Source: an uncultured bacterium
GTDB taxonomy: Bacteria; Patescibacteriota; Patescibacteriia; Patescibacteriales; UBA12465
DNA: 64,000 nucleotides
Assembly (NCBI GenBank): GCA_942492765.1
Contig: OW818634.1
Location: forward strand, 601,159 to 665,158
Reading direction: 5' to 3'
In this document: positions 6,833-52,425 of the stretch, in pieces
Numbering within the stretch: position 1 is the stretch's first letter
Layout of the letters: every line of letters begins with the position of its first letter
The notes under the pieces: generated by a model
Seen by the model: only the letters and a program-made list of their open reading frames with translations
Database searches by the model: none
What the model was told of the DNA's origin: nothing
Position numbers and translations under genes: made by a program

Positions 6833-8299
6833 TTATTCGGCTTTATTAGCGTCCGTTCCGATGATCAATAAGAAATCGGGAGTAGAAGTGGCGTTTTGAT
6901 ATTCGCCTGCCCACGCCGGGAAATCGAATGATTGGGCGGCGCCGGTCAAGCTTTTTAGGGCTTTCAATGATTTTTCTTTAACAGTGGTAGTAGCCAAGCT
7001 ATAAACGGTTGTCTTCGCGTAGTCTCTTTCCGGCGAATTCCCGGTTTTAGAAATGATAAATCCAGATTGTTCCAAGATTACAGAGGTCTTTCCGGCTAGG
7101 CCGCTGATCCAAGTTCCGTTTAAGACGACCACTTTAGCCGCATCGCTTATCTTGATTATTTCCTTAGTCGGGTCGGCGATAGATCCTCCGGTCGAGGAAG
7201 CGGCAAAGATATTCTTAACGGCATTTCTTACTTCTGAGAAATTTCCGGAGCGAGGGGTTAGGATATAGGCGCCGCCTTCTCCTAGGCCAGACACTAATAA
7301 TCCATCCGGAGCATCGCTTAAGACTTTATTGATTATCTTGGTGCGATCGACATCCTTGAACATTTCCCAGAGGCGCAATATTTCCCAGGCGTTAAGATTA
7401 GTAGAGACATCCTTACTAAATTCGTTGACTAGCTTGGTAATCATGACCGGGTTCAATAAAGTCTTACTGGAGAGAAGCTTGTCTTTTACCGCCTCAAGCA
7501 CTAATTGCTGGCGCTTGGCGCGGGAAAAATCTGAGCCTTCACCGCCGCCAGCATGGCGGCTGCGGGCATACTTTAGAGCTAAGGAGCCGTTCATAGTTTG
7601 CAGGCCTTTATCAATATGCAGGTGTTCGTAGCGGGAGTAATAATTAGGATTATCCTCTTGGCCGAGAATTGGGTAAGCGTAATCGTCGATCGTATTCTCT
7701 ACGTTGACTTGGATTCCGCCCAGTTCGTCTATTATATTGGAGAAGCCGCTGAAATCTACGCGGATATAATAATCAATTGGCGTCTGTAATAGTTCCGTAA
7801 AAGCTTTTATAGTCACTTCGCCGCCGCTGCCAGGATTATCCTTTTCTGCGTAAGCGTTGATACTGTTAACTTTTTGCCACCCACTGACCGGAGCGACTAG
7901 ATCGCGCGGGATAGAGACGAGCGCAACTTGCTTATCAGAAGGCTGGAGGCTAGCTAGCATGATCGTGTCTGTCAGGTAGGCGCCTTCGTGCCCTTCCCCG
8001 CCCATTCCTAAGAGCAAGATATTAACGCGATCCTCCCCCTCTCCTTTTAACATCTTATCAGAACTGGGCACTAGATGTTTTAACTTGCTTAAAAAGCCAG
8101 TTCCGGAAAACCAATCGGTTCCATTCTGGCTGGATATCAAAATTTTTCCGGAAAAGATCAATCCAACAGCGACAATCGCGATAATATAAGTTACTATCCG
8201 TTTTCTTCTCTTGCTCGGGATGATAATTTCTTCGGAGTCATCTGATAAGCGTCGGGCGCGCTTTTCCTCTTCTTCCATTTTTTGCTTGAAATCAATCAT
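6833..8299 (-). CDS. LytR-CpsA-Psr (LCP) family cell-envelope phosphotransferase with C-terminal LytR_C-like domain
   Basis: N-terminal TM, then the LCP core NILLLGMGG..GAYLTDTIMLASL..VSIPRD. The start codon lies 7 nt after the tRNA-Pro 3' end. Confidence 0.85.
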   Translation of the reverse strand: MIDFKQKMEEEEKRARRLSDDSEEIIIPSKRRKRIVTYIIAIVAVGLIFSGKILISSQNGTDWFSGTGFLSKLKHLVPSSDKMLKGEGEDRVNILLLGMGGEGHEGAYLTDTIMLASLQPSDKQVALVSIPRDLVAPVSGWQKVNSINAYAEKDNPGSGGEVTIKAFTELLQTPIDYYIRVDFSGFSNIIDELGGIQVNVENTIDDYAYPILGQEDNPNYYSRYEHLHIDKGLQTMNGSLALKYARSRHAGGGEGSDFSRAKRQQLVLEAVKDKLLSSKTLLNPVMITKLVNEFSKDVSTNLNAWEILRLWEMFKDVDRTKIINKVLSDAPDGLLVSGLGEGGAYILTPRSGNFSEVRNAVKNIFAASSTGGSIADPTKEIIKISDAAKVVVLNGTWISGLAGKTSVILEQSGFIISKTGNSPERDYAKTTVYSLATTTVKEKSLKALKSLTGAAQSFDFPAWAGEYQNATSTPDFLLIIGTDANKAE

Positions 8300-8306
8300 A
8301 AAATTG

Positions 8307-8377
8307 TCGGGCTGCCGGGAATTGAACCCGGATTACACGCACCCGAAGCGTGCGTAATACCGTTATACCACAGCCCG
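8307..8377 (-). tRNA. tRNA-Pro (anticodon CGG)
   Basis: Cloverleaf read by hand: acceptor CGGGCTG/CAGCCCG, anticodon stem CACGC/GCGTG, loop TTCGGGT, T-loop TTCAATT. No encoded CCA (trailer CAA). Confidence 0.9.
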
Positions 8378-8415
8378 TGATACTGTTAACTTTTATCCGA
8401 TCGGTTTCGGATTTG

Positions 8416-8488
8416 TGGACTTGAGGGGACTCGAACCCCTTACCTCTGCAATGCGAATGCAGCGCTCTACCAGATGAGCTACAAGCCC
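8416..8488 (-). tRNA. tRNA-Ala (anticodon CGC)
   Basis: Acceptor GGGCTTG/CAAGTCC with the G3:U70 Ala identity pair. Anticodon loop TTCGCAT. Trailer CAA. Confidence 0.9.
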
Positions 8489-8501
8489 GCGGTTTTCTAT
8501 G

Positions 8502-8572
8502 TCGGGCTGCCCGGAATCGGACCGGGGCTACATGCACCCCATGCACGCGTACTACCATTATACTACAGCCCG
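8502..8572 (-). tRNA. tRNA-Pro (anticodon GGG)
   Basis: Acceptor CGGGCTG/CAGCCCG, anticodon loop ATGGGGT, T-loop region GGTCCGATTCCGG. Trailer CAT. Confidence 0.85.
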
Positions 8573-10350: not shown

Positions 10351-11836
<1,486 letters not shown>

Positions 11837-21461: not shown

Positions 21462-22733
21462 ATGCCAATGAAAAAAATAAATCTCGTGGCCGCGGATATG
21501 GGTTACGGCCATCAGCGCGCCGCCTATCCTCTCATGGACATGAGTGGCGGAGAAATCATCACTATTAATGATTATCCGGGAATCGCTGATTGGGAAAAGG
21601 ATTATTGGGTTAAGAGCTTACGTTCTTACGAAAAGGTTTCTCGCCTGAAGAAGATTCCTCTTTTAGGATACGCAGTTTTTGAAATCATGGATGCTTTTCA
21701 GAAAATACGCCCGCTTTATCCTTTCCGTGACTTGTCTCGACCGACTACGCAGCAAAGATATTTTTTCCGTTTCGTGAAGCGCGGCTTAGGCAAGAACTTG
21801 ATTGAAAGCCTTAATCGTGAAGCCCTGCCATATGTGACTACTTTTTTCGTAGCCGCTTATATTGCCGAATATCATGGTTATAAAGGTGATATTTATTGCA
21901 TAATCTGCGATACCGATGCTTCTCGCGCCTGGGCGCCCCTTACTCCGAAAGCGAGCCGGACTAAATTCTTAGTGCCGAGCGAAAAAGTTAGGGAAAGATT
22001 CCTGATGTACGGAGTCAAGCCGCAGAATATCATCGTTACCGGCTTCCCCTTGCCTAAAGAGAATATTGGCGCGGAAAAAGAGATATTGACCGACGACCTG
22101 GAGCGTCGCGTCGCCCTGCTTGATTCAGAAGGGATATATCGCGATCATTATAAGTCATTGCTGAAGAGCGTGGCTCCGGATTCCCTGAAAGACGAGAGTC
22201 ATCCGATCACTATAACCTTCGCGGTCGGCGGCGCCGGAGCTCAAAAAGAAGTCGGTGCCCTGATCATGAAAAAACTAGCCCTAGGGATACGTGAAGGAAA
22301 GATCGCTTTGAATATGGTGGCTGGAAACAGGCCGGAGGTGAAAGACTATTTCGAAGAAGCCGCTGCTATCAGCGGTTTGCGTATCGGGAAAGGATTAGAG
22401 ATAATTTTTGCACCCGATAAAATCGATTATTTCAAGAAATTCAACCGTTGCCTGCGTAACACTGATATACTCTGGACTAAGCCTTCTGAATTATCATTTT
22501 ATTGCGCTTTGGGATTACCGATAATAATATCGACTCCTGTCGGCAGCCAGGAAGACTGGAATCGCGAATGGCTGCTGTCGATGGGGGCGGGAATAGACAG
22601 TCTTGCCCCTGAGTATGTTGATGAATGGCTGCCTGATCTTCTGGCGTCCGGCCGGCTAGCGCGCGCTGCCGTCGACGGTTTCTTGAACGCGGAACAGATG
22701 GGCGCCTATAATATTGAAAGATTATTAAGCTAG
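21462..22733 (+). CDS. Putative GT-B fold glycosyltransferase (MGDG-synthase/MurG-like N-terminus)
   Basis: N-terminal ADMGYGHQRAAYPL resembles the G-x-G-H-x-x-A-A motif of the MGDG synthase/GT28 family. The rest was not recognisable by eye. Confidence 0.35.
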   Translation: MPMKKINLVAADMGYGHQRAAYPLMDMSGGEIITINDYPGIADWEKDYWVKSLRSYEKVSRLKKIPLLGYAVFEIMDAFQKIRPLYPFRDLSRPTTQQRYFFRFVKRGLGKNLIESLNREALPYVTTFFVAAYIAEYHGYKGDIYCIICDTDASRAWAPLTPKASRTKFLVPSEKVRERFLMYGVKPQNIIVTGFPLPKENIGAEKEILTDDLERRVALLDSEGIYRDHYKSLLKSVAPDSLKDESHPITITFAVGGAGAQKEVGALIMKKLALGIREGKIALNMVAGNRPEVKDYFEEAAAISGLRIGKGLEIIFAPDKIDYFKKFNRCLRNTDILWTKPSELSFYCALGLPIIISTPVGSQEDWNREWLLSMGAGIDSLAPEYVDEWLPDLLASGRLARAAVDGFLNAEQMGAYNIERLLS

Positions 22734-32376: not shown

Positions 32377-32790
32377 TTAGACAGCTGGCGGCATACTTCC
32401 TCCACCGCTGAAAGGCAGCCATCTGAAGATGAAATAGGTAATTGAGTAGGCTGCTAGCACAATGACTAGGCCGATAATTGCCGTCTTGATTGACCCCTGG
32501 GCTTTCTTGACTGCTTCTTCATTGCCACCTGACGTCATCCAGCGGAATCCGCCTATTATCGTCAGGATTAAGAAGATTATTCCTAAGAAACCGAGAACGA
32601 TTCTGATGATTTTGGATATTAAGACTCCGATATCAACTTGTCCGAAATTAGCTTGTTGGGCGGTAATAGCAGTGATACTGTCTAGACTGCCTTCGCCGGT
32701 GGCATTAGTTATGAGCTGGGCGGAAGCAACTTTGAGGAATAAAAGAGGTGCGATTATCAGGACTAGCGAGGTGATGATTATTTTTTTCAT
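32377..32790 (-). CDS. TrbC/VirB2-like (T4SS-pilin-like) small membrane protein, array member 6 of 6
   Basis: Start set at MKKIIITS (ATG 32790, 2 nt after the upstream stop). Signal peptide ..VASA, variable region, TM1, loop GGFRWMTSGGNEEAVKKAQ, TM2 IIGLVIVLAAYSI. Confidence 0.75.
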   Translation of the reverse strand: MKKIIITSLVLIIAPLLFLKVASAQLITNATGEGSLDSITAITAQQANFGQVDIGVLISKIIRIVLGFLGIIFLILTIIGGFRWMTSGGNEEAVKKAQGSIKTAIIGLVIVLAAYSITYFIFRWLPFSGGGSMPPAV

Positions 32791-32792
32791 AT

Positions 32793-33215
32793 TTAGTTGC
32801 CTAATAATATAAATCTTTGGAAGATGAAGCCCCAAAGGCTATAAGCGGAAATAGCGACAATCAGGCCGATGATAGCTTGTTTGATAGTGCTCTTGGCTTT
32901 CTTGATATCTTCTTCGTTGCCGTTAGCTGTCATCCATCTATAGCCCGCGATGATGATCAGGATCAAGAAGGTTATGCCTAGGAATCCGACGAAAGCGCCG
33001 ATAACCGTGCCGATTATCTTCGGAGTCGAGGCGATGCTAGCATCGGTCTGATAGCCGCCTTCTCCCGCCACGGTCGTAAGCCTATCCATTAGTTTAGATG
33101 GTCCGGCTGGCGGCGGAGGAGGAGTAGAGTCGTCTTGAGCCAGGGCTAAGCCAGGCAGGATAGCAAAGAGACCCAGGGCCAGGAAGTAAATGATTGATTT
33201 GATTTCTTTTTTCAT
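32793..33215 (-). CDS. TrbC/VirB2-like small membrane protein, array member 5
   Basis: Signal peptide ..LALA, PPPPPP-containing variable region, loop AGYRWMTANGNEEDIKKAK, TM2 IIGLIVAISAYSL. Confidence 0.75.
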   Translation of the reverse strand: MKKEIKSIIYFLALGLFAILPGLALAQDDSTPPPPPAGPSKLMDRLTTVAGEGGYQTDASIASTPKIIGTVIGAFVGFLGITFLILIIIAGYRWMTANGNEEDIKKAKSTIKQAIIGLIVAISAYSLWGFIFQRFILLGN

Positions 33216-33224
33216 ATCGCTTGG

Positions 33225-33617
33225 TTATTTCGTTATGAGAGTTCTTGTTAATAGAGTGCTGAATCCAGAGCTCAAAGCGTAAGCCATTAGGATTAGGACT
33301 AATCCGATCATCAGGTTTCTGATGGTTGTCTTAGCTTTTTTGACTTTTTCTTCGTTTCCGGCGGCTTGCATCCAGTCGCTGCCGGCCAAGAAAGTCAAAA
33401 CTATGAAGATAGTCCCTATGAATGAGAGGATTATGCGGATGATAGTGCTTATCCGATTTTCTAAAGTAGTCTCGGTGTCATATTCAGTTGCCGCTGCCGT
33501 AGCCTTGATGTTGTTGGCGTATTCTTGCTGCTTATCAGAATTCAACAGGGCAGCCTGGACTGGGAAAGCCGATAAGATGAGAAATGAAAATAGGAAGATT
33601 ATTCCGGCCTTTTTCAT
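33225..33617 (-). CDS. TrbC/VirB2-like small membrane protein, array member 4
   Basis: Signal peptide ..PVQA, loop AGSDWMQAAGNEEKVKKAK, TM2 MIGLVLILMAYAL. Confidence 0.75.
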   Translation of the reverse strand: MKKAGIIFLFSFLILSAFPVQAALLNSDKQQEYANNIKATAAATEYDTETTLENRISTIIRIILSFIGTIFIVLTFLAGSDWMQAAGNEEKVKKAKTTIRNLMIGLVLILMAYALSSGFSTLLTRTLITK

Positions 33618-33620
33618 AAA

Positions 33621-34037
33621 TTATTGCCAAAAATAATTGATTAAGAAATAGCTCAAGGCATAGGCCGAAAGAGTGATCACTAGCCCGACGATGGCGCTCA
33701 TGATCAAGCCTTCAGCTTTCTTGACCTTTTCCTCGTTGCCGCGCGCCGTCATCCAGGTAAAGCCTCCATAGATGACTAATCCGAAGAAAAGTATGCCGAT
33801 GAAGCTCAGTAGGGTATAGATGACGCGGCTGATTACGCCTTCTAGAGTAGTCGCGCTCGTTCCCGTATCATAGCCAGCGACATTGGCGGCCGCTCCTAGG
33901 CCGCTCTGTTCCTTGAAATTATAAGTTCCTCCGATTCTGTCAGTCGTAGTCGCTGCCGACGCTGGCAATAGGAAGCATAAAGATAAGCAGATAGTCAGCG
34001 AAGCTAAAATCAGTTTTTTAGAAATAAGCTTTTTCAT
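33621..34037 (-). CDS. TrbC/VirB2-like small membrane protein, array member 3
   Basis: Signal peptide ..PASA, T/G/S-rich variable region, loop GGFTWMTARGNEEKVKKAE, TM2 IVGLVITLSAYAL. Its start overlaps the upstream stop (TAATG). Confidence 0.75.
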   Translation of the reverse strand: MKKLISKKLILASLTICLSLCFLLPASAATTTDRIGGTYNFKEQSGLGAAANVAGYDTGTSATTLEGVISRVIYTLLSFIGILFFGLVIYGGFTWMTARGNEEKVKKAEGLIMSAIVGLVITLSAYALSYFLINYFWQ

Positions 34038-34432
34038 TATTGTAGAAGGTTGTTTCCTAAGAAAGCGGTCAAGGCATAGGCGGAAAAGACCACGATAATG
34101 CCGATAATAGCATTTATCAAGAGGCTTTTCGCTTTAGATATCTGTTGTTCGTTGCCGCTAGCGGTCATCCAAAGGATGCCGGCGTATATCATGAGGATGA
34201 AGAAAAGGACGCCGACGAAAGAAAGGGCAATACTGATGATCTGACCTACTCGGGTCGTCAAGAAATTATCGTCAGGCGTAGCTACCTGAGGCACAAAAGC
34301 AGTGACTTTTCCGGCTGTTTCGTTGAGGCCAGTCAGGGGATTGTCGATTACTTCTTCCGCTAGCGCTTGATTCAGGGAAAAGGAAAAGGAAATGAAGGCT
34401 AAAACAAAGATAAGAAAGATTTTTTTTATCAT
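34037..34432 (-). CDS. TrbC/VirB2-like small membrane protein, array member 2
   Basis: Signal peptide ..NQALA, loop AGILWMTASGNEQQISKAK, TM2 IIGIIVVFSAYAL. Confidence 0.75.
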   Translation of the reverse strand: MIKKIFLIFVLAFISFSFSLNQALAEEVIDNPLTGLNETAGKVTAFVPQVATPDDNFLTTRVGQIISIALSFVGVLFFILMIYAGILWMTASGNEQQISKAKSLLINAIIGIIVVFSAYALTAFLGNNLLQ

Positions 34433-34524
34433 AAAGAGGCTAATTATTCACTGTTCTGGACCGAAAAAACTTTTCCGATCCAAGACAGTGACCCCCATCC
34501 TAAGATGAGAATCACTTATTTTAA

Positions 34525-34905
34525 CTAGTTGACGGCATTCATGAGAGAGTTGATGATGAAAGTAGCGATTGCCCATGATGATAAGATGATCACCAAGCCG
34601 ATAACGCCAGCCCCTAACAACTTCTTAGCTTCACCGGTCTTCTCTTCGTTGCCTCCGGCGGTCATCCACTTGAAGCCTCCTAATAAGACGATGCCGACAG
34701 CGATTACGCCCAAGAAGCCTAGAGCCATATTGATAATACGGCCGATGACAGTTCTCGGATCGGTGCTGGACAAAGAATTGTTCAGTCCGTTGCTAACTGC
34801 GTTCAGTCCTGGGTCGAACTGGGCATGAGCCGTCAAGGCAAAAGCCGGGACGACTAAGAATGCTAAGATAGCCAAGGAGATTAAATGTTTAGAAATATTT
34901 TTCAT
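34525..34905 (-). CDS. TrbC/VirB2-like small membrane protein, array member 1 (likely the major subunit)
   Basis: Signal peptide ..LTAHA, loop GGFKWMTAGGNEEKTGEAKK, TM2 VIGLVIILSSWAI. It is the only member with a strong SD (AAAGGTGGTGAATTT-ATG). A 92-nt spacer holding a hairpin separates it from the next gene. Confidence 0.75.
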   Translation of the reverse strand: MKNISKHLISLAILAFLVVPAFALTAHAQFDPGLNAVSNGLNNSLSSTDPRTVIGRIINMALGFLGVIAVGIVLLGGFKWMTAGGNEEKTGEAKKLLGAGVIGLVIILSSWAIATFIINSLMNAVN

Positions 34906-39457: not shown

Positions 39458-39871
39458 TTACTGCGCTTTCGGAACAGCTATTTGGCCGTTCCAATCCAGA
39501 CCCATCGATCCCATGACGAATTGGATTATTAGATAGCTGGCAAAGACGATGACGAGACCGATGACCGCGGCGACGATTATCTTCTTGGCTTGGGATATCT
39601 TTTCGCTGCCGCCGCCGGAAATCAAGAAGAGGACGCCGCCGTAGATGAACATGACGAGCGAGAGAGATCCAACCATCCCCAATATCCATTTAGAGACGTT
39701 GATAGCCAGCACGATGAAGTCATTAATCTCGTAATTGCCGCAATAAGTCGCATCGCCGGCAGAGCAAGCCTCGCCGCTAGCTGGCGGCACTAAGCCCTGC
39801 CCGTAAGCCAGCGAGACATTGAAGACGAATAAGCTCAAGAAGATCGCGGCGATGATATTTTTTTTAAGCAT
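39458..39871 (-). CDS. Divergent TrbC/VirB2-like small membrane protein (seventh family member, outside the array)
   Basis: Same signal peptide-variable-TM-loop-TM plan. The loop reads GGVLFLISGGGSEKISQAKK and TM2 reads VIGLVIVFASYLI. The variable region carries Cys residues (GEACSAGDATYCG). Confidence 0.6.
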   Translation of the reverse strand: MLKKNIIAAIFLSLFVFNVSLAYGQGLVPPASGEACSAGDATYCGNYEINDFIVLAINVSKWILGMVGSLSLVMFIYGGVLFLISGGGSEKISQAKKIIVAAVIGLVIVFASYLIIQFVMGSMGLDWNGQIAVPKAQ

Positions 39872-41339: not shown

Positions 41340-42848
41340 TTAATCCGGGCTTGGCCGATACTGTAAAGCTTCGGCGATATGCTCTGGCCAGATATTTTCT
41401 TTTCCATCTAAATCGGCGATGGTGCGAGCCACTTTTATGAGCTTGAAATAAGAGCGGGCGGATAGCTTCATTTTATCGCTCGCAGCATTAAGCAAGGTCT
41501 CGCTAGCCTTATCCAGGGGGCAGAAATTCTTGACGAGCGGACCGGGAATCTCGGCGTTAGTCATGATTATTCGGCCTTTAAAGCGTCGCGCCTGTATTTT
41601 TCTAGCAATTTCTACTTTTCTCTTAATATCAATAGAATGTTCGGGGTTTTCAGTGTTGATTTTTTGCCAATCAATCCTGTCTACCGTGATGTGGAGGTCG
41701 ATGCGGTCTAGTATTGGTCCCGATAGGCGTCTCTTATAAGCGACGATCTGTGATTCCGGGCAATGGCAAGCTTTCTCTTTAGACCCGCGGTAGCCGCAAG
41801 GGCACGGATTCATGGCGGCTAGAAGAGTGAAGCGAGCTGGGAATCTTAAGCGCTTAGCTGCTCGGTCTATGTTAATGACGCCTTCTTCTAGGGGCTGGCG
41901 TAAGCTTTCTAGCGCTGAGCGTGAGAATTCTGGAAACTCATCGAGGAATAAGACGCCGCGGTGAGCTAATGATATTTCGCCTGGGCGGGGGTAAGCGCCG
42001 CCACCGACCAAGGAATGGACCGAAGCACTATGGTGCGGCGAACGGAAAGGGCGACAGCTGATGATGGCCGTTTCCTTTAATTCTCCGGCGGCGCTGTATA
42101 TCTTAGTTATTTCAAGTTCTTCCGAGAAATCGAGGTCTGGCAAGATGCTAGGCATGACGCTGGCAAGCATTGTCTTTCCTGATCCGGGCGGTCCGCAAAA
42201 TAGGAGATTGTGCCCGCCGGCGGCCGCTATCTCTAGCGCGCGCTTGGCCTTTTCTTGTCCCTTGATATCGCCGATATCAAAATAATGATTTTTCCGGGGC
42301 TGCCTAGCTGATGATAGACTGAACGCGGGAATTAGAGATGACCCTTGGAGGTAGCCGATCATCTGGGGCAGGCTTAAGATCGGAATGATGATCAGCCCTT
42401 TGATGAGGCTAGCCTCAGCGGCGTTAGCTTGCGGCACGAATAGTTTTGATAATCCCGCCTGTCTGGCGGCCATCGCTATCGAAAGGACCCCGTTTAGCGG
42501 GCGTACCTCGCCGCTTAGCGATAATTCGCCGACCATCAGGGATTTTGAGCAGTCAACAGTAAATTTATTATTGATAGCCAGAATGCTGATAGCTATCGGC
42601 AGGTCGTAGATAGGGCCGCGTTTCTTCAGATCAGCCGGAGCAAGATTAACAGTTATTTTGCGGCGGGGGAAAGGCAGGCCGCAATTGCGCAAGGCGCTCC
42701 TAACTCGTTCTTTCGATTCGGAAACAGCCGTATCAGGCAGACCGACGATAGTTATCGATCCAAAATCACCGCCGCCGGAATCAGCCTCGACCGCGATTAT
42801 TTTAGCATCGAGACCGTCTAAGGCCGCTGACCAGATTTTTGTGGGCAT
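41340..42848 (-). CDS. comM: YifB/ComM family Mg-chelatase-like AAA+ ATPase
   Basis: Start set at MPTKIWSAALDGLDAKIIAVEAD (ATG 42848). Walker A GPPGSGKTM, then the LFLDEFPEF and MNPCPCG motifs. Confidence 0.9.
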   Translation of the reverse strand: MPTKIWSAALDGLDAKIIAVEADSGGGDFGSITIVGLPDTAVSESKERVRSALRNCGLPFPRRKITVNLAPADLKKRGPIYDLPIAISILAINNKFTVDCSKSLMVGELSLSGEVRPLNGVLSIAMAARQAGLSKLFVPQANAAEASLIKGLIIIPILSLPQMIGYLQGSSLIPAFSLSSARQPRKNHYFDIGDIKGQEKAKRALEIAAAGGHNLLFCGPPGSGKTMLASVMPSILPDLDFSEELEITKIYSAAGELKETAIISCRPFRSPHHSASVHSLVGGGAYPRPGEISLAHRGVLFLDEFPEFSRSALESLRQPLEEGVINIDRAAKRLRFPARFTLLAAMNPCPCGYRGSKEKACHCPESQIVAYKRRLSGPILDRIDLHITVDRIDWQKINTENPEHSIDIKRKVEIARKIQARRFKGRIIMTNAEIPGPLVKNFCPLDKASETLLNAASDKMKLSARSYFKLIKVARTIADLDGKENIWPEHIAEALQYRPSPD

Positions 42849-42949
42849 ATTTTTATATTTAGCTCCTAATCGAACGAAAAAGACCATCCTATCAGGATGG
42901 TCTTATCTTAAAATATGACAGCTTAAGGGAAATTAAATTTTTTATAATC

Positions 42950-45900
42950 TTAACGTCCGGCTAAGTTGATCTCGTCCAGCTTGACGCTCAGCAGCTTGCT
43001 GACTCCGTCAGCCTCCATAGTCACTCCGTAGAGGATGCTCGCTTTGCGCATGCAGGCGCGGTTATGAGTGATAACAATGAATTGCGTCTTGTTAGACAGA
43101 TCATCAAGGATACTAGCCAGGCGTTCGGAATTAGCCTCATCAAGAGCAGCATCGACTTCATCGAGCACGACGAAAGGCGACGGATTGGCGCTGATGATGG
43201 CGCAGATGAGAGCGATAGCGGTCAGGGCTCGTTCGCCGCCAGAAAGCATTGTGACCGTCTGGATCTTCTTGCCCGGAGGCGTCGCCTGGACTTCGATGCC
43301 AGCAAGCCCGACAGCGTTATGTTTCTTGAGGAATTTTATTTTTTTCAGCTTCTCGTCGGTTTGGTTCTTGATTTCAACCTCCGCCGGAGTCAGTCCGCTT
43401 ATTTCTGGTTTGACGGCCGGACTATTCTTAGCTTCCTCCTTTTCAACATCTTCCGTCATAACTTTGGATATCTTAGCGTTGCCGCCGTTGAAAAGGATCT
43501 TAAAATATTCATTGAATTTCTCGGAGATGACTTTAAACTCAGCATCGAAGCGGTCCTTGATATTCACGTCTAGTTCGTAGATTATCTCCTCCAGGGATTT
43601 GATAGCATTATCGAGGTCGTCGACTTGGCCACTCAAGAAATCATAGCGCTCCTTGGTCTCTTGATATTCCTTTTCCGCTTCCGGGTCGATACCCCCGATT
43701 TGTTCTAATTGGCTCTTGTTATTCGTTAATCTTTTCTGCAAGAGATTGATGTCAATCGCCTTTTCGCTTTCGCGGTAATCCTTGATCTCAGAAATGTTCA
43801 ATTCCTCGCCCCTGATATTAGCTTCTAAATCTTCTAGTCTCGTCTCTTGCCGTGTCGCCTCTATCTTGAGGCCATTAAGCTGATCGGAAATCTCGTTAAC
43901 CTCCGCTTGGAGGGACTGGATATTTTTTTGGCATTCGAACATCTGCGATTTTTCCTTGTCCTTTTCGCGGTTGAGCTCTTCGAGCTTATCTTCTATTTCT
44001 CTTATTTCAGAATTCAGGCCGGTAAGTTTCTCGTTTATCTCCTTCTTTTCTATCTCGATGCCGCTAGCGTCGAATTTGACTTGGCTCTTGGCAATCTTGA
44101 TCTTGATATCTTCAATCTCCTTTTCGCTTTGAGTCTTCTTGGCGCGCAGCAGACGCAAGCGCTCGTCAATGGCTGAAGCTTTGAGGCGATAGTCCTGGAT
44201 TTTTGATAAGGCCGCCTGCTTCTTTTCGTCCAGTTCGCCTAAACGGTCATTCTTGGATAATTCAGCTGCCTCTTTTTCTAGGACCGATATCTTTTTATAT
44301 ATTTCTGATTTTTCGCCTTCGATTTTGGAGGCATCGAACTTTATCTGAGCCTTATCGAGCTTGGCCCTGATATCGGTAACTTCTCGGTTCGTTTGTCTCT
44401 CCTTGTCTTCTAGGAGGCGCAGGCGTTCGGTGACTGACGATAGCCGCAACCTCTCCTCGTTCAAGCGATTATTAGCTTCTTGGCGCTCTTCTGTCAGAGA
44501 GATGATCTCCGTCTGGATATCTTTTATTCTTTGGACATCATCTCCGCCGCCGCCGGAAATAAGCGCCTGGATTTTGTTCTTGAATTCAGCCTTGGCCGAG
44601 GCGATCATCTTCTTTATCTTCTCCAGATCGCTTTCATGGCCGATCGTATCTAGCTCTTTCAGGAATTCGTCGATGACGCGGCTGATCTCTTCATTCTGAT
44701 TGCCGGCCGCACTTGCTTTTTTCAGCTCCTTATTGATAGCTTCTATCTCGGTATTCAGATGGCCCAGCTTCTCCTGGATCGCACTCAGTTTATTTTCTAA
44801 GTTTATTTTTTCTGTCTGATTATTCTCTGCGCGGAGACGACCGATCTCTTCAACGAGCGATTCCAAGTCTTTGACCAGTTCCTCGTTCTTATTATTCAGC
44901 CAGGAGACGTCGAATTGTCCTTGGATTTCCAGGTTAGCTTCCAAGACAGCCTCCAGTTTAGATATTTGTCGCAGATATTGGTCCTTCTCTGTATTCAGTT
45001 GGCTGATTTTTATCCTTAGGCCGTTAGCTTTTTCTATCTCTTGGTTGATAAAGCGCAATTCATCGTTAAGGGCCGTCTCTTCTTTGGAAGAATTATTTTT
45101 TTCGTTGGCGCTGATTTCAGAGTTTATGTTTTCCAGTTCGGCGCTTAGCTCTCCCTGCTTATTATTGAGCCAAGAGATATCAAATTGTCCCTGCGATTCT
45201 AATTGCACCTCTAATTCAGCTTGTAACTTGGCTAGCTGTTTCAGGTATTGATTTTTTCTAGCTTCCAGGTCTCTCAGGCGCGGAGTCAACTCATTTATCT
45301 CTCGGAAATTATCGGTGTTTCTGATTTTATTCAGCTCCTCATTGAGCTTGTCTAACTTTTTTTCGCGCTCCAGCTTCAGCCTCTCGCTTTCCAGGAAGCG
45401 GGCATTGAAAGAATCTAATTTTTTATTGATATCTTGCCAGAGATAGCCATAATAATTCAATTGGTCGCCCTTAAGCTCCGATTCTATTTCACCGCGGCGC
45501 TTCAGTTTCTCTACTTGGCGGGTTAGGCTCTTAAGGCGCGGCCTGATTTCGGAAAGCAGCATGTCGACTTGTTGAAGATTCTCATAGCTGTTTTCTAGCT
45601 TATTAAGGGCTGAGTCGCGCTTAATCTGAAATTGCTTGACGCCAGTCGCCTCGTCGAAAAAATCTTTTCTGTCCGCGGCCGAAGAGCTCAAGAAATTCTC
45701 GACCATGCCCTGGCCGATGACGCTATAAGTCTTCTGTCCGAAATTAGCTTTAGCTAAGAGCATCTGGATATCGGCTAGCCGGACGCGATTATTATTCAAG
45801 AGATATTCGCTTTCGCCGCTGCGGTAAAGGCGGCGAGTGATGATGATTTCGCCGCAACTGGCGATCAGCTGGTCAAGATCGCTTTCTTTTTCGATCGTTT

Positions 45901-46213
45901 CTGGAATCTCCGCTTTATTCTTCAGAGCCTCGGCGTTATTCAGATATAAAGACACCTCGGCTAAGCTGAGCTGGCTCTTCTGATCGGAACCGGAAAAGAT
46001 GATGTCTTCGCTTTTTTTGCCGCGCAAAGTCTTGAGACTCTGTTCGCCTAAAGCCCAGCGGACAGCGTCAGCGACGTTAGATTTTCCGGATCCGTTCGGT
46101 CCGACGATAGCCGTCAAGCCTCTTTTTTGCTCATTGATCAATCCGGAGAAGATAAGCTTATTCTTATGGGCGAAGGATTTGAAACCCTGAACTTCCAGTT
46201 TTTCTAGATACAT
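42950..46213 (-). CDS. smc: SMC-type chromosome condensation ATPase lacking a recognisable hinge domain
   Basis: N-terminal head FKSF..IVGPNGSGKSNVADAVRWALGEQSLKTLRG. C-terminal head LSGGERALTAIAL..VLDEVDAALD. The middle is continuous coiled-coil with only ISGGGGDD at residues about 552-559 of 1087. Confidence 0.85.
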   Translation of the reverse strand: MYLEKLEVQGFKSFAHKNKLIFSGLINEQKRGLTAIVGPNGSGKSNVADAVRWALGEQSLKTLRGKKSEDIIFSGSDQKSQLSLAEVSLYLNNAEALKNKAEIPETIEKESDLDQLIASCGEIIITRRLYRSGESEYLLNNNRVRLADIQMLLAKANFGQKTYSVIGQGMVENFLSSSAADRKDFFDEATGVKQFQIKRDSALNKLENSYENLQQVDMLLSEIRPRLKSLTRQVEKLKRRGEIESELKGDQLNYYGYLWQDINKKLDSFNARFLESERLKLEREKKLDKLNEELNKIRNTDNFREINELTPRLRDLEARKNQYLKQLAKLQAELEVQLESQGQFDISWLNNKQGELSAELENINSEISANEKNNSSKEETALNDELRFINQEIEKANGLRIKISQLNTEKDQYLRQISKLEAVLEANLEIQGQFDVSWLNNKNEELVKDLESLVEEIGRLRAENNQTEKINLENKLSAIQEKLGHLNTEIEAINKELKKASAAGNQNEEISRVIDEFLKELDTIGHESDLEKIKKMIASAKAEFKNKIQALISGGGGDDVQRIKDIQTEIISLTEERQEANNRLNEERLRLSSVTERLRLLEDKERQTNREVTDIRAKLDKAQIKFDASKIEGEKSEIYKKISVLEKEAAELSKNDRLGELDEKKQAALSKIQDYRLKASAIDERLRLLRAKKTQSEKEIEDIKIKIAKSQVKFDASGIEIEKKEINEKLTGLNSEIREIEDKLEELNREKDKEKSQMFECQKNIQSLQAEVNEISDQLNGLKIEATRQETRLEDLEANIRGEELNISEIKDYRESEKAIDINLLQKRLTNNKSQLEQIGGIDPEAEKEYQETKERYDFLSGQVDDLDNAIKSLEEIIYELDVNIKDRFDAEFKVISEKFNEYFKILFNGGNAKISKVMTEDVEKEEAKNSPAVKPEISGLTPAEVEIKNQTDEKLKKIKFLKKHNAVGLAGIEVQATPPGKKIQTVTMLSGGERALTAIALICAIISANPSPFVVLDEVDAALDEANSERLASILDDLSNKTQFIVITHNRACMRKASILYGVTMEADGVSKLLSVKLDEINLAGR

Positions 46214-47733: not shown

Positions 47734-48759
47734 GTGAAAACAAACCGTAAACCTGACGGCTTGAGAACCCATCGGGTTTTCGCCATCGCTATGATTTTTG
47801 TGACTGCCATCTCTCTCTTCTCTTGCTCCAAATGCGATGATGAAGAAGATATTGCCCTGAAGCCAGCCATTGTCATAAAACCAGCTGAAAGGGTAGGCAT
47901 TGATTCGGCCACGCTAGTGGCCAAGCTAGTACCATACGAGAAGGGGACAACCGTCTCGTTTGAGTACAGAATCGCTGCTTCCTGGAACTGGCAAGTTATT
48001 CCTTTGCCCCTAGATTATACTGGCCAGGATTCTATTGCAGTCACGCTCAAGCTCATCGGCCTGACAGCTAATACTAAGTATAGCTTCCGAGCCAAGGCCT
48101 CAAACGCCGGCGGCGACGTCACTACCGCCGAATCAGCCTTCGAGACCTATGCCGTCTCTGACTATGATGGTAATCTATACCACACAGTTACTATCGGTAC
48201 CCAGACCTGGCTCCGAGAAAACCTGAGAGCCACTCATTATGCTAATGGGGAGGACATTCCTAATATCACTAACCCAGAGGCTTGGGGTCAATTAACTACC
48301 GGCGCTTATTGTTGGTATGATAATGATCCTAAAAACGGGAAGGTCTATGGCGCGCTCTACAATTGGTATGTCGGCGCTAACAATGACAAAGTCTTGATTG
48401 ACGGCTGGCATGTGCCGACGGTTTATCAGTTTGCCGATTTGAGAAGATTCCTGGGAGAATATTATTATGCTGGGCCAGCCCTAATGGAGGCGGGAACAAC
48501 CCACTGGGTTGCTCCGGACAGACCAGGAACAAATAGTTCAGGGTTTACGGCCTTACCCAATGGCATTTTTGGTCATGATCCAGTAACCTTCAAGTTCGTT
48601 TTTATGAATTTAAGAGAAGATGCCGTTCTTTGGACCGCCACTGAAGCGACCCCGCTCGACGCTCACCTGATGGATATTGACCATCGTAATTGCTGGATGG
48701 TCCTGGAAGCATATTATCCAAAAAGCCTCGGATGTGGGCTTCGTTTATTAAAGAATTAG
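47734..48759 (+). CDS. FISH-domain (Fibrobacter succinogenes major paralogous domain) lipoprotein with N-terminal Fn3-like domain
   Basis: Lipobox LFSC. YDGNLYHTVTIGTQTWLRENLRATHYANG...YGALYNWY...GWHVPT...GFTALPNG is the TIGR02145-type pattern. GTG start. Confidence 0.75.
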   Translation: MKTNRKPDGLRTHRVFAIAMIFVTAISLFSCSKCDDEEDIALKPAIVIKPAERVGIDSATLVAKLVPYEKGTTVSFEYRIAASWNWQVIPLPLDYTGQDSIAVTLKLIGLTANTKYSFRAKASNAGGDVTTAESAFETYAVSDYDGNLYHTVTIGTQTWLRENLRATHYANGEDIPNITNPEAWGQLTTGAYCWYDNDPKNGKVYGALYNWYVGANNDKVLIDGWHVPTVYQFADLRRFLGEYYYAGPALMEAGTTHWVAPDRPGTNSSGFTALPNGIFGHDPVTFKFVFMNLREDAVLWTATEATPLDAHLMDIDHRNCWMVLEAYYPKSLGCGLRLLKN

Positions 48760-48875
48760 TTAAATTCCGTGATTTTAAAGGGTACTTAAAATAAGTATCC
48801 TTTTTTTTGAAAATACCTAATATTGTCTATTAAGATGAAAAATGGTATTATTTAATTAGAGTTAATTTTACAAAT

Positions 48876-49556
48876 ATGCCAAAATTTAATCTCTTAAAAA
48901 GTATGAAATCATTCGTATCGCGTTTTAAATTTATCAGTCTAGCCATCTTAGCGGTTTTAATCCTTATTCCAATTGTAGTAGTTGCCGTTAATGAACCACA
49001 GACTGGGTACAAAGTTCTTCAAAATGCATTAAGTGTACCTGTCTTTTTCATGGATAACGTCTCGACCGTGCATGCGACCGGAGTCTGTATCAATAACGTC
49101 ACTGGCGATAGCCGGACGGATTCTTCTCATATAGTTGGCATCGATTATTTCGTTCCGACTAAGACCGCAACCGAATTCGCCAGTTTTTCCGCTTTTAGAA
49201 ATACTTCCCATCTTATCCCGGTAAGCTGTATCGGCGACTTGGTTTGTACCGGCCCAGGCGAGACTTGCCTTAATGCTCCTGGAGATTGCGGCGCGTGTGC
49301 TCCGGCAGGTCCTTGCGACTATGACGAGATCTGTGATCAAGATGAGGGGCAGGATTGTCAAGATTGTGATGCCTATTGCGATAATGACTGTAGCTGTGAA
49401 GAACATGATTCTTACATCCCGGAGTGTGCTGACTGCTATCCTTATATCAATTGCGGCGTCCCTCAAGAGCCTGATTGCTGGTGTGGCGATGGATACTGCG
49501 ATACTCGGTGCGAAGACTACGGCTCTTGCGCCGTGGATTGCCCCTTCGGCACCTAA
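48876..49556 (+). CDS. Secreted/anchored protein with an extremely Cys- and Asp-rich C-terminal domain
   Basis: N-terminal TM. The last ~110 aa carry about 26 Cys among D/E/G/P (CTGPGETCLNAPGDCGACAPAGPCDYDEICDQDEGQDCQDCDAYCDNDCSCEE...). No family recognised. Confidence 0.55.
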   Translation: MPKFNLLKSMKSFVSRFKFISLAILAVLILIPIVVVAVNEPQTGYKVLQNALSVPVFFMDNVSTVHATGVCINNVTGDSRTDSSHIVGIDYFVPTKTATEFASFSAFRNTSHLIPVSCIGDLVCTGPGETCLNAPGDCGACAPAGPCDYDEICDQDEGQDCQDCDAYCDNDCSCEEHDSYIPECADCYPYINCGVPQEPDCWCGDGYCDTRCEDYGSCAVDCPFGT

Positions 49557-49590
49557 TTAGATAGAGGTTTAAAAATTAATCATTTAAAAT

Positions 49591-50019
49591 ATGAACAAGA
49601 AATATCTTAAACTCTCTATCCAGATAATATTCATCCTGCTCGTTTTAGCTCTAGCGCTCTACTTAATAAATCAAAAGATGGGTAATCGGTTATTCAAGTT
49701 CGGAACGGATGATGGCATTAAGGCCACTAGCACCGTGAAGGATCTTATGACTGAAGACGAAAAATTTTCTCTCGGCCTCTATCATCTTGGTATTTTCGAG
49801 GTGCTTTCCCGGAATGAGCTAGGGCGACCGACCGCATTCAAACTTATCGGAGTAGACGAGCCGCAAGCTATTGGAATCGATCTGATGAGCGATGCAGAGA
49901 AGGCCAAGAAGCGGATAGCCGCCAGCACCTATGTCCAAGTTCTAAAGAGAGATAGCAGCGGCCGGATATTGGAATATAGAATAATGAAAGATGCGAATGA
50001 TATTATGGAAAAATACTAA
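49591..50019 (+). CDS. Hypothetical membrane-anchored protein, paralog A of 51994-52425
   Basis: N-terminal TM. Shares MT.E/DEK..LGL...V.SR...G...A.K..G......L..M.DA.K..R.A.ST.VQ.L..DS.G.I......K...DI...Y with paralog B. Confidence 0.6.
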   Translation: MNKKYLKLSIQIIFILLVLALALYLINQKMGNRLFKFGTDDGIKATSTVKDLMTEDEKFSLGLYHLGIFEVLSRNELGRPTAFKLIGVDEPQAIGIDLMSDAEKAKKRIAASTYVQVLKRDSSGRILEYRIMKDANDIMEKY

Positions 50020-50037
50020 GCATAAAATAGATTAATT

Positions 50038-50068
50038 AAAAAAACCTCTTTGTGAAAAGAGGTTTTTT
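50038..50068. terminator. Bidirectional terminator between paralog A and the CarS-like gene
   Basis: aaaaaacctctt-tgtgaa-aagaggtttttt. Confidence 0.8.
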
Positions 50069-50086
50069 GATAGGTGGAAGACTGGG

Positions 50087-50590
50087 TTAGTAAGGATGCT
50101 CACGCAGGCCGAGCTTGAAGGCGATCAGGCAGGCAAGCGGATGGAGGATGTATGTCAGCAGGATGGCTAAGACGGCGAAAAGCAGATCAATATAATGCAG
50201 CGAGACGAAAATGACCCCCAGCAAGAGCATATAGTCTCCATGATCTATGATGGGCAGGAACTCTCCGCTTTTCATATGTAACCGTCTCTTGACGAAGCTT
50301 CCTAGCGCGTTCCCGGCGTAGACTATCACGGGGATACTAGCCCAGATTATCTCTCCCGCGGCTGAATAGACAGACAAACTTATCGCCAGCGAGAACGCCA
50401 GCCCGATGATATTCACCGAATCTCCTATTAGGCGCTCTCCTCGGAAGTTTAATCCGAAATCTAGAGGATAGTTAAGGTATTTGAATTCGGGCACGTATTT
50501 CTTGACCACGTATAAAAGATTTAGAGAGATATTAGCACTCCAAGCAATAAAGAAATACGCGAAGAAATTAGTAGGTGTCAGCGTTACCAT
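50087..50590 (-). CDS. CDP-archaeol synthase (CarS/DUF46)-like integral membrane protein, divergent
   Basis: 167 aa with about 5 TM. PLDFGLNFRGERLIGDS resembles the CarS P-x-D-x-G...LGDGKT block. GNALGSFVKRRLHMKSGEFLPIIDHGDY resembles GD..GSFIKRR....G...P..DQ.D. The K-T-W-R block and the first D are not conserved. Confidence 0.45.
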   Translation of the reverse strand: MVTLTPTNFFAYFFIAWSANISLNLLYVVKKYVPEFKYLNYPLDFGLNFRGERLIGDSVNIIGLAFSLAISLSVYSAAGEIIWASIPVIVYAGNALGSFVKRRLHMKSGEFLPIIDHGDYMLLLGVIFVSLHYIDLLFAVLAILLTYILHPLACLIAFKLGLREHPY

Positions 50591-51893
50591 AAAGTATGGG
50601 GTTTACTAGCAAGTAATCAGCGATATTGTTCTTACGAAGCTCTCCATTTATGATCGTTAATGTTTCTAATAAGCAAGGATTAAGGAGAACTCTGAGATCG
50701 GTTTGCCATCTAGTCCCGTCTCCAGACGAAGCTCCATTCAGTATTTTAACGTCTTCCGTGTTCGCAAAGGCACTCTTGGTAAGAGGGGTCGGCGTTATCA
50801 GAGTGATTGATAATCTGGGGCGAGGCCTGCCCTTGAAACAATTTATACCGTCTGCGGCTAGCGGCAGATAATTTACGTTCTTGCGGAGACGCCTGGATAA
50901 TTGTCCAATGGATTGAGCTCTTTCCGTTTCTATGATTTTTACCTTTTCTTTGTTCTCATCATAGAAATAAGCCTGGCTTCCTGCCGGCAAGATGATTGAA
51001 GAATAAGAGCGGATATCTCGATCGCCGACGCCGAAGGCCCACCAGCCAATCATGAAAAACGAGAAGAGTAAAAGCAATATCCATGATCTTATTTTTTTCT
51101 CGCTGCCATAGAGGACCAGGGTGTAGAGGAGTATCAGGGCGGCGGGGGCGGCGATAGTTCCGTGGCCGCCATAGCTGAAGAAGTTTATCGCTAAGAAGAT
51201 AGCGCTTATTATCGGGCCGATAATATAATAATATCTGGTTAGCGGCCATTTCCTTTCCTTAAGGATAAAGATGGCGATGAAAATCAGGCCGATGATAAAG
51301 CCGCGATTGAAGATGCCTCCATCTAGAGCGGTCTTGATCAAGGAAAATGAGATTAAGGCATAGCCCAAGATTAAGAAAGACTTCTGTCTGACGTTCTTTC
51401 CTCGGTCATCTAGTAATTTCTTAAAGGAGGTGGCGAAATACAGAATCGCCTGCAATATCAGAGCGATCAGGAGAATAGACCCCAATAGAAATAGCCAGCT
51501 CGGGACTATACCAAGATAGGCGCCGCCGGCATCTGTCGCCTGAAATTTGGTTTTACCTAAATAAGAAGCGACTTGGGCTATCGTTGCCTTAGCGATATGG
51601 GTGTGTTGGAGCGATGAACAGGAAATTTCTCCGTTATGGCCGGTGACGAAGAAAGTCGCCAGTGGCAACTTATTAGAAAGCGCATGGAAGACATGCAGCC
51701 CTAATCCGTAGAGATACATGGCAAGCAGGCTGAGGCCGAACCATCTCCAGCGGAAAGTCCTAAGGGAGTATTTTTTGAGATCAAGGTAGATAGCGCCTAA
51801 AAACAAAAGATATAAGATGAAGAGGATAGTCTTTATCTCGCTGCGGCCGCCGGCGAAGATGTTCACAAATGAGTGGAGTATATCGAATATCAT
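50568..51893 (-). CDS. Hypothetical polytopic membrane protein with a soluble C-terminal domain
   Basis: 441 aa. Overlaps the CarS-like gene start by 23 nt, suggesting an operon. No family recognised. Confidence 0.5.
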   Translation of the reverse strand: MIFDILHSFVNIFAGGRSEIKTILFILYLLFLGAIYLDLKKYSLRTFRWRWFGLSLLAMYLYGLGLHVFHALSNKLPLATFFVTGHNGEISCSSLQHTHIAKATIAQVASYLGKTKFQATDAGGAYLGIVPSWLFLLGSILLIALILQAILYFATSFKKLLDDRGKNVRQKSFLILGYALISFSLIKTALDGGIFNRGFIIGLIFIAIFILKERKWPLTRYYYIIGPIISAIFLAINFFSYGGHGTIAAPAALILLYTLVLYGSEKKIRSWILLLLFSFFMIGWWAFGVGDRDIRSYSSIILPAGSQAYFYDENKEKVKIIETERAQSIGQLSRRLRKNVNYLPLAADGINCFKGRPRPRLSITLITPTPLTKSAFANTEDVKILNGASSGDGTRWQTDLRVLLNPCLLETLTIINGELRKNNIADYLLVNPILYGNADTY

Positions 51894-51993
51894 AGCTTAT
51901 CATAATATTACCATATAGCCTGCCATTTACAAAAAATGACATTGTCAGTTCAGTTATTTGATGGTATAATTTCTATATAATCAATTTAAAAAT

Positions 51994-52425
51994 ATGGACA
52001 AAAGAATAATTAAGATCTTAATCATCCTGTTTTTGTCCCTGATTCTCGCGGTTTTAGCTTTCTACTCCTGGCAGTATTTTCAAGCCCGGAAGAACCAGGC
52101 TGCCGGTAACGCCGCGCCAGCGCTTTCTAATGCTAGCACTTCGGACGAGATGATGACGGCCGAAGAAAAGAAGGCCTTGGGGTTAAATGCTAGGAACGGC
52201 TTCACGGTCGTTTCTAGAGATAAGGACGGCAAGGTGACCGCGTATAAGAGCACTGGCACGATTGAGGCACAGCCTTTGAATTTAGAGTGGATGACCGACG
52301 CCGATAAGATTTGGAGGCGCATGGCGACTAGCACGAGAGTGCAGATTCTTGAGAAAGATAGTACCGGGAGCATAACGGCCTTTAAGATAATCAAGAGTGA
52401 TGCCGATATCGTGAAGACTTATTAG
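51994..52425 (+). CDS. Hypothetical membrane-anchored protein, paralog B of 49591-50019
   Basis: Same length and architecture as paralog A. I estimate one-third or more identical positions over the C-terminal 95 aa by eye. Confidence 0.6.
   Translation: MDKRIIKILIILFLSLILAVLAFYSWQYFQARKNQAAGNAAPALSNASTSDEMMTAEEKKALGLNARNGFTVVSRDKDGKVTAYKSTGTIEAQPLNLEWMTDADKIWRRMATSTRVQILEKDSTGSITAFKIIKSDADIVKTY

Follow-up and report, generated by a model that had tools for sequence, protein, structure and literature searches.

The hinge is treated as a defining domain of SMC proteins: it is regarded as their constitutive dimerization interface, and roles in binding DNA or as a gate for it have been proposed. 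In the engineered Bacillus subtilis protein Smc(Zh), the zinc hook of Pyrococcus Rad50 functionally replaces the hinge, which proves by experiment that SMC can do without the hinge fold itself (Buermann et al. 2017, PMC5344682). The same study gave the natural prokaryotic Smc arm-length modes as 163, 238, 341, 423, and 515 aa, showed by resizing B. subtilis arms that function recurs with a period of 91 aa, roughly a superhelical turn, and took the arm-length constraint to reflect the geometry between the heads and the distal dimerization end (PMC5344682). A natural "hinge-less" cluster from ocean metagenomes, with SMC-type heads, a coiled coil, and neither hinge nor CxxC hook, is argued by its authors to belong within SMC rather than Rad50/SbcC, and is placed by them in or near marine Actinobacteria (Sussfeld et al. 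2025, PMC12153180). Here we describe an smc-like gene in a 64,000-nt stretch (the whole of which we call the window) of contig OW818634.1, from an uncultured bacterium of the Patescibacteria, part of the Candidate Phyla Radiation (CPR). The gene occupies positions 42950–46213 of the minus strand as one unbroken frame of 3264 nt, 1087 aa plus stop, and encodes SMC heads and no recognizable hinge; residues are counted from the N-terminus of its product. On balance we consider it probable that this is a genuine orthologous condensin-type SMC ATPase that has lost its hinge and carries a small all-helical tip instead.

The absence of a recognizable hinge, first suggested by a sequence-only reading of the gene, is borne out by Pfam, a custom hidden Markov model (HMM), profile–profile comparison, and PDB search. 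Pfam SMC_hinge (PF06470) has no match at E ≤ 10, either in the whole protein or in its central 162 aa searched alone, and the Pfam search of the protein gave no MukB-type hinge. An HMM built from the hinges of the eight closest hinged relatives, and run unfiltered (--max) on 343 family sequences, matches nine, all of 995–1035 aa: the eight sources and one further protein of 1029 aa. It finds nothing in the 1087-aa protein, and nothing better than E = 0.28 in the ~750-, ~885-, and ~1087-aa classes. A PDB sequence search matched Smc heads (5xg3 at 3e-95) and no solved hinge structure, AlphaFold2 placed no beta strands at the center of either the full-length or the fragment model, and no separate hinge-encoding open reading frame lies within the window. 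PF06470 is likewise missing from the precomputed annotation of all 120 best homologs, which come from many independent assemblies (58–93% identity, 940–1118 aa). We also considered the center as a degenerate hinge, and rejected this on the hhalign probability of 0.1–0.2% for residues 498–562 and 470–600 against the nearest-hinge alignment.

Both head halves are those of an SMC protein, and every motif named in the sequence-only reading lies where that reading put it: FKSF at residues 11–14, Walker A GPNGSGKSN at 38–46, RWALGEQS at 52–59, LSGGE at 990–994, and Walker B VLDEVDAALD at 1016–1025. Pfam SMC_N matches residues 2–1072 (6.5e-45), and the NCBIfam equivalog for SMC_prok_B, TIGR02168, scores 600.5 bits against its cutoff of 567.35; this match falls into two stretches, neither of them covering the profile's hinge region, and the listed one aligns protein residues 2–522 to profile positions 1–511. 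The head features are as follows.

42950–46213, minus strand: complete smc-like open reading frame, 1087 aa plus stop (open reading frame listing, TIGR02168, SMC_N)
45644–46213, minus strand: N-terminal head half, residues 1–190, with FKSF, Walker A (46076–46102), and RWALGEQS (alignment to the 5xg3 head)
42950–43498, minus strand: C-terminal head half, residues 906–1087, with LSGGE (43232–43246) and Walker B (43139–43168)
~45860–45934, minus strand: insertion of ~25 aa in the N-terminal head, residues ~94–118, relative to B. subtilis Smc
43307–43465, minus strand: insertion of ~45–50 aa in the C-terminal head, residues 917–969, relative to B. subtilis Smc (...GLTPAE.EIK..DEKLKKIKFLKKHNAVGLAGIE)

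Both insertions are conserved across the family and have a low predicted local distance difference test (pLDDT) score. The protein thus shares with B. subtilis-type Smc (of Smc-ScpAB, matched by TIGR02168, SMC_N, and SMC_hinge) the head motifs, a canonical arm class, and a housekeeping context; it differs in the two head insertions and in a ~50-aa helical tip where the B. subtilis type has its hinge.

Comparison with related CPR proteins extends the absence of the hinge to a whole clade. Scanning a single genome from each GTDB species gave 131 relatives, of which we kept 80 loci (44–93% identity, genes of ~3.2 kb), from Falkowbacteria and other Patescibacteria metagenome-assembled genomes and from the closed 977-kb chromosome CP066698.1. 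More than 100 homologs across 80+ Patescibacteria species genomes have the same hingeless architecture. Further afield, an exhaustive HMMER search covered 1.84 billion cluster representatives and gave 29,213 matches at E ≤ 0.001. The best 150 (38–65% identity) include no protein of the canonical ~1180 aa; those that are full-length measure ~750, ~885, or ~1000–1090 aa. Pfam finds SMC_hinge in exactly the 995–1035-aa class, at residues ~415–550 and with E from 1e-24 to 1e-31, between short arms. The hingeless class of ~745–750 aa also belongs to Patescibacteria (Parcubacteria group, Ca. Uhrbacteria), and the label Ca. Falkowbacteria is carried by two hinged proteins (1031 and 1059 aa). The nearest hinged relatives are such short-arm Patescibacteria SMCs (995–1059 aa, 38–45% identity; among them P0145, P0173, P0355, and P0386), which differ from the 1087-aa protein in keeping PF06470 at ~415–550 and in having arms of the 238-aa mode. 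We also built a neighbor-joining tree from the head domains, with B. subtilis Smc as the root. Its hinged forms are scattered among the hingeless ones at four or more points, and the 1087-aa protein belongs to a long hingeless group that makes up a single nested clade. Since this tree carries no support values, we offer repeated loss of the hinge as a hypothesis rather than a result. One relative, P0268 (1425 aa), is ~500 aa longer than the other SMC relatives, and the query match begins at its residue 601; in the 55-protein set that includes it, one member, not assigned to P0268 directly, matches Intein_splicing (8.7e-26) and LAGLIDADG_3, which points to a possible intein within the N-terminal head.

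What stands in place of the hinge is more elaborate than the sequence-only reading had supposed. That reading had the arms fold back on a minimal Gly4 turn, within ISGGGGDD, that sat at the exact middle of the protein and was the only interruption of its helical center. ISGGGGDD spans residues 552–559 (44537–44560); its glycines (554–557) are near the middle but not at the midpoint, residue 544, and the helices also break at 503–505, at 526–529, and at ~10 more places along the arms. The center is instead occupied by a conserved ~50-aa helix-loop-helix (helices 506–525 and 530–552) in which the chain reverses at 526–529.

44543–44704, minus strand: tip module at the hinge position, residues 504–557 (AlphaFold2 fragment model, conservation, homologous helix-loop-helix of relatives)
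Parts of the tip module, in residues: loop 504–505; helix 506–525; turn 526–529 (44627–44638); helix 530–552; Gly-rich loop 553–557 (GGGG at 44543–44554)
44705–45643, minus strand: N-terminal arm strand, residues 191–503 (AlphaFold2 pLDDT 70–89, heptads)
43499–44542, minus strand: C-terminal arm strand, residues 558–905 (AlphaFold2 secondary structure)

An AlphaFold2 model of the 201-residue fragment 440–640 has a pLDDT of 87.3 and a predicted template modeling score (pTM) of 0.70, and agrees with the full-length run in predicting helices at 467–503, 506–525, 530–552, and 558–639; confidence in the tip drops only at the loops 504–505 and 553–557. In these models the arm strands are shown as long antiparallel helices with mirrored discontinuities. 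Breaks in the N-terminal strand fall at 299–301, 341–343, 372–374, 431–433, and 464–466, and those in the C-terminal strand at 622–628, 655–657, 709–716, and 803–806; N-strand positions ~504, 432, and 342 face C-strand positions ~554.5, 625, and 712.5, with a register sum of ~1055–1058. It is this nearly constant sum that places the predicted reversal of the chain at loop 526–529, inside the conserved helical hairpin, so that the Gly4 loop is not the turn. Heptad periodicity runs along the arms in an alignment of 83 sequences.

The Gly-rich loop 553–557 is predicted to face loop 504–505 across the arm, the two forming a paired joint under the terminal hairpin, and the tip is probably an up-down four-helix cap, made when the hairpin bends at the two loops and packs against the ends of the arm. 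With Foldseek, the sole low-rmsd (root-mean-square deviation) superposition was on the stacked four-helix-bundle domain 3i9y (4.8 Å over 181 columns), while plain hairpins superpose at 16–22 Å. The hydrophobic stripe of the tip helices is also wider, at 0.35, than that of the adjacent arm (0.22–0.28). Hydrophobic tip positions I510, F517, L518, L521, L530, A540, F544, and I548 are invariant or nearly so, and alignment shows that the ~885–895-aa hingeless relatives keep a homologous helix-loop-helix. The Gly4 run was rejected as a conserved feature, its place being taken in relatives by SGGHGDD, TGENDEK, ADENADK, NSDNRDK, or FSSGDNY. 

Arm length in the family is sharply quantized. We took it as half the spacing of conserved motifs at the head boundaries, measured in 302 family members, a sample biased to relatives of two seed proteins. 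Hingeless members cluster sharply at 172, 238, and 325 aa and nowhere between, and hinged relatives measure 234 aa after subtraction of the hinge; the three classes match published SMC arm-length modes. Smith–Waterman comparison with shuffles (z scores) further revealed a repeat within each arm strand of the 1087-aa protein, which self-BLAST, returning the identity match alone, did not.

45023–45280, minus strand: repeat copy N1, residues 312–397, with motif QGQFDISWLNNK at 341–352
44732–45010, minus strand: repeat copy N2, residues 402–494, with motif QGQFDVSWLNNK at 431–442
44219–44485, minus strand: repeat copy C1, residues 577–665, with motif KFDASKIEGEK at 625–635; predicted partner N2
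43961–44221, minus strand: repeat copy C2, residues 665–751, with motif KFDASGIEIEK at 713–723; predicted partner N1

N1 and N2 align with a score of 187 (z ~22, 46% identity, period ~90 aa), and C1 and C2 with a score of 183 (z ~20, 45% identity, period ~88 aa). The N1 motif is ancestral: hinged relatives P0145 and P0173 share it, carrying KIGKQNLSWLEDKK at the place of QGQFDISWLNNK. N2 is an extra arm segment missing from the ~885–895-aa hingeless and from the hinged relatives, and in alignment N2, the tip, and C1 together stand where hinged relatives have the hinge. A recent tandem duplication was rejected: the DNA has no repeat at ~265–270 nt spacing, and the duplication is therefore old, visible only at the protein level. 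Each ~90-aa repeat corresponds to one published period per strand, and the duplication moves the arm from the 238-aa mode to the canonical ~340-aa mode. Three divergent long-arm relatives (L048, L052, and L058) have kept the motif in the outer copies alone, N1 and C2, a pattern consistent with pairing of these two segments. By contrast, another group of divergent long-arm relatives (L059–L076) keeps only the inner N2 copy. Differential retention of this kind fits N1–C2 and N2–C1 pairing; it does not give the order of duplication.

In the account we favor, the globular hinge has been replaced by the helical tip while canonical SMC heads and long antiparallel arms are retained. The terminal hairpin would fold back at its double joint onto the arm ends to make a four-helix cap, and two protomers would associate along their arms and through the cap, where they could lie side by side or exchange hairpins by way of the flexible loops. 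Such a homodimer would have the shape of a rod and act in the manner of Smc-ScpAB, by ATP-driven head engagement with DNA entrapment or loop extrusion, and would dispense with hinge-mediated DNA contacts. In evolutionary terms, close relatives that keep the hinge have short arms (238-aa mode), and the ~885-aa hingeless proteins correspond to the same form minus the hinge, each strand of the 1087-aa lineage having gained a ~90-aa segment, one coiled-coil superhelical period, by the old duplication. Dimerization by means other than the hinge, as the sequence-only reading proposed, is a reasonable expectation. RecN, which dimerizes through its coiled-coil tips, offers the closest mechanistic analogy to the proposed cap. 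That the protein acts as the condensin-type SMC of its cell and forms homodimers at the cap and along the arms we infer from three circumstances: its arms continue to follow the length rule, conservation of the tip extends over more than one length class, and the hinge is experimentally replaceable. The substitution of the Rad50 zinc hook for the B. subtilis hinge makes a non-hinge dimerizer a proven possibility (PMC5344682). Smc(Zh) likewise joins SMC heads and arms to a non-hinge tip with arm periodicity retained; it is artificial and dimerizes through a zinc-bound CxxC motif, whereas the 1087-aa protein is natural and has no CxxC.

Several points weigh against this account. The heads are poorly modeled in the full-length AlphaFold2 run (pLDDT below 50, as compared to 70–89 for the arms and a mean of 69), and the four-helix fold-back geometry is deduced indirectly, from the Foldseek rmsd values. 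The hydrophobic excess of the tip helices over the adjacent arm is modest. The repeat signal is strong in ~50 of the 70 long-arm members and missing from the ~20 most divergent, at unchanged arm length; divergence, concerted evolution, or separate events may account for its absence. No ScpA or ScpB was found in the window at E ≤ 1e-5 (Pfam on concatenated open reading frame translations), nor by phmmer on ~1.06 Mb of related loci, a weak test with B. subtilis ScpA and ScpB sequences as queries; neither was found in the flanks of relatives, where the neighborhoods of P0137 and P0355 were uninformative. Finally, the dimer interface itself is deduced rather than observed.

This last point leaves room for a different view of the tip, which we think unlikely though by no means negligible: the tip may be a passive cap, with protomers meeting only where their heads engage on ATP and a kleisin or some tip-binding partner perhaps linking them. 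In that case the complex would not close into a ring or rod; it would act as a clamp, dimeric at the heads and with both arms free, like a hookless Rad50 or an ABC-type ATPase. The small size of the tip (~50 aa), the modest hydrophobic excess of its helices, and the lack of both zinc hook and hinge all suit such a clamp. Free arms, however, would hardly explain arm lengths as sharply quantized as in hinged SMCs, nor a matched ~90-aa duplication in each strand that restored a canonical mode, and the conservation of the helix-loop-helix across the ~885- and ~1087-aa classes suggests more than a passive turn.

Improbable, in our judgment, is the proposal that the 1087-aa protein is a diverged SMC-like repair or defense protein, with a separate canonical condensin encoded elsewhere in the genome. 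Most family members bear only the NCBI name "AAA family ATPase", ScpAB is not found nearby, and there are partial PADLOC matches to defense models: mad3, the best, with 189 bits in the head only, and LmuB with 85. Against this stand the 600 bits of the SMC equivalog, above its cutoff, as compared to at most 189 for any defense model, and defense SMC-like families were rejected on the partial, head-level nature of their matches. No nuclease or defense partner genes adjoin the smc-like gene. The nearest relatives are hinged SMCs, interleaved with hingeless ones in the head tree, and this interleaving fits orthologous replacement better than an old paralog. The neighborhood, moreover, is a housekeeping one (comM-like, cmk-like, rplS) in most of the 80 genomes, and a role as repair or defense paralog is unlikely.

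Nor is the Rad50-like affinity proposed in the sequence-only reading supported. Rad50/SbcC, RecN, MukB/MksB/JetC, and the archaeal ASRPs resemble the 1087-aa protein in having ABC-type heads and an antiparallel coiled coil without a canonical SMC hinge at its end. Yet TIGR02168 is passed, while Rad50 models reach at most 46 bits (cutoffs 700–1087), the RecN model TIGR00634 26.3 bits (cutoff 407.85), and the ASRP model NF045487 86.6 bits (cutoff 300), with the JetC match at 36 bits over a partial stretch and no MukB-type hinge in the Pfam search. No gene in the window received an Mre11/SbcD-type nuclease assignment. A zinc hook was rejected: CxxC occurs in the central 30% of none of the 343 family members, and the cysteines of the 1087-aa protein are only residues 120, 761, 1004, and 1054. 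By sequence, then, it is an SMC proper and not Rad50-like. To loss of a hinge segment in this contig only, through assembly error, frameshift, or pseudogene deletion, we give essentially no credence; we found no point in its support, and it is refuted by the homologs and hinge HMM results, by the uninterrupted 3264-nt frame, by the same length and architecture in >100 independent assemblies (44–93% identity), and by a conserved center that is confidently folded in the models.

Hinge-less SMC as a general phenomenon is already on record with the oceanic cluster (PMC12153180), which by architectural description, the only basis of our comparison, has the same architecture in a different host group; the oceanic and Patescibacteria losses are probably independent. 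Full-text literature searches found no description of a hinge-less SMC in CPR, Patescibacteria, or Parcubacteria, and the Patescibacteria clade, the helical cap, the interleaving with hinged relatives, and the quantized and duplicated arms appear to be new. We advance as a tentative, though serious, proposal that Patescibacteria contain a large radiation of hingeless SMC condensins in which the hinge was lost, possibly several times, the four-helix cap provides a new mode of dimerization, and the ~90-aa arm rule is kept (classes of ~172, 238, and 325 aa per strand), with the arm re-extended by exactly one period per strand.

A large bacterial clade appears to do without the hinge in its only recognizable SMC ortholog while keeping the heads and quantized arms, and so offers a natural test of which SMC functions need the hinge and why arm length is periodic. 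Should the proposed radiation be real, these proteins would parallel in nature the engineered hinge-swap and arm-resizing experiments, and throughout a major bacterial group SMC would function in vivo with no need of the hinge fold. At 750–1090 aa they are also compact enough to be useful for structural work on SMC arms and heads. As most of them are annotated only as "AAA family ATPase", genome-content surveys could wrongly score these CPR lineages as lacking SMC.

The content of the window is typical CPR housekeeping DNA. At lower window coordinates than smc lies a block of UPF0102, methyltransferase, HTH_25, pilin, solute-binding protein, and ComM-like ATPase genes; this block and the cmk-like and rplS genes on the other side recur in 50–70 of the 80 loci, which marks a conserved housekeeping locus. 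The ComM/YifB-like Mg-chelatase-family ATPase gene (41340–42887, minus strand) is immediately downstream of smc in the direction of transcription, and a distant relative (L081) has a similar gene at 21535–22688, some 9 kb away from its ~895-aa hingeless smc, so that the two may have a loose conserved linkage. Six small T4SS_pilin (PF18895) paralogs stand in tandem at 32377–34905, upstream of smc in window coordinates, and a seventh copy (39458–39871, minus strand) follows ~4.5 kb further on and is kept in 70 of the 80 related loci.

Just downstream of rplS and two tRNA genes, a six-gene block (47734–52425) includes a gene for a Fib_succ_major-domain lipoprotein-like protein and others for a Cys/Asp-rich secreted protein, a large membrane protein, and two paralogous small proteins; it is present in only one of the 80 related loci, and is thus a variable island beside the conserved smc locus. 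A complete 16S rRNA gene (10353–11834, minus strand; 1447 bits, model positions 1–1533) stands alone between protein-coding genes, and the 64 kb hold no 23S or 5S rRNA, so the rRNA operon is unlinked. A tRNA cluster (8306–8572, minus strand) encodes Pro-CGG, Ala-CGC, and Pro-GGG, and is overlapped by an 88-aa open reading frame, called at 8292–8558, that is almost certainly spurious.

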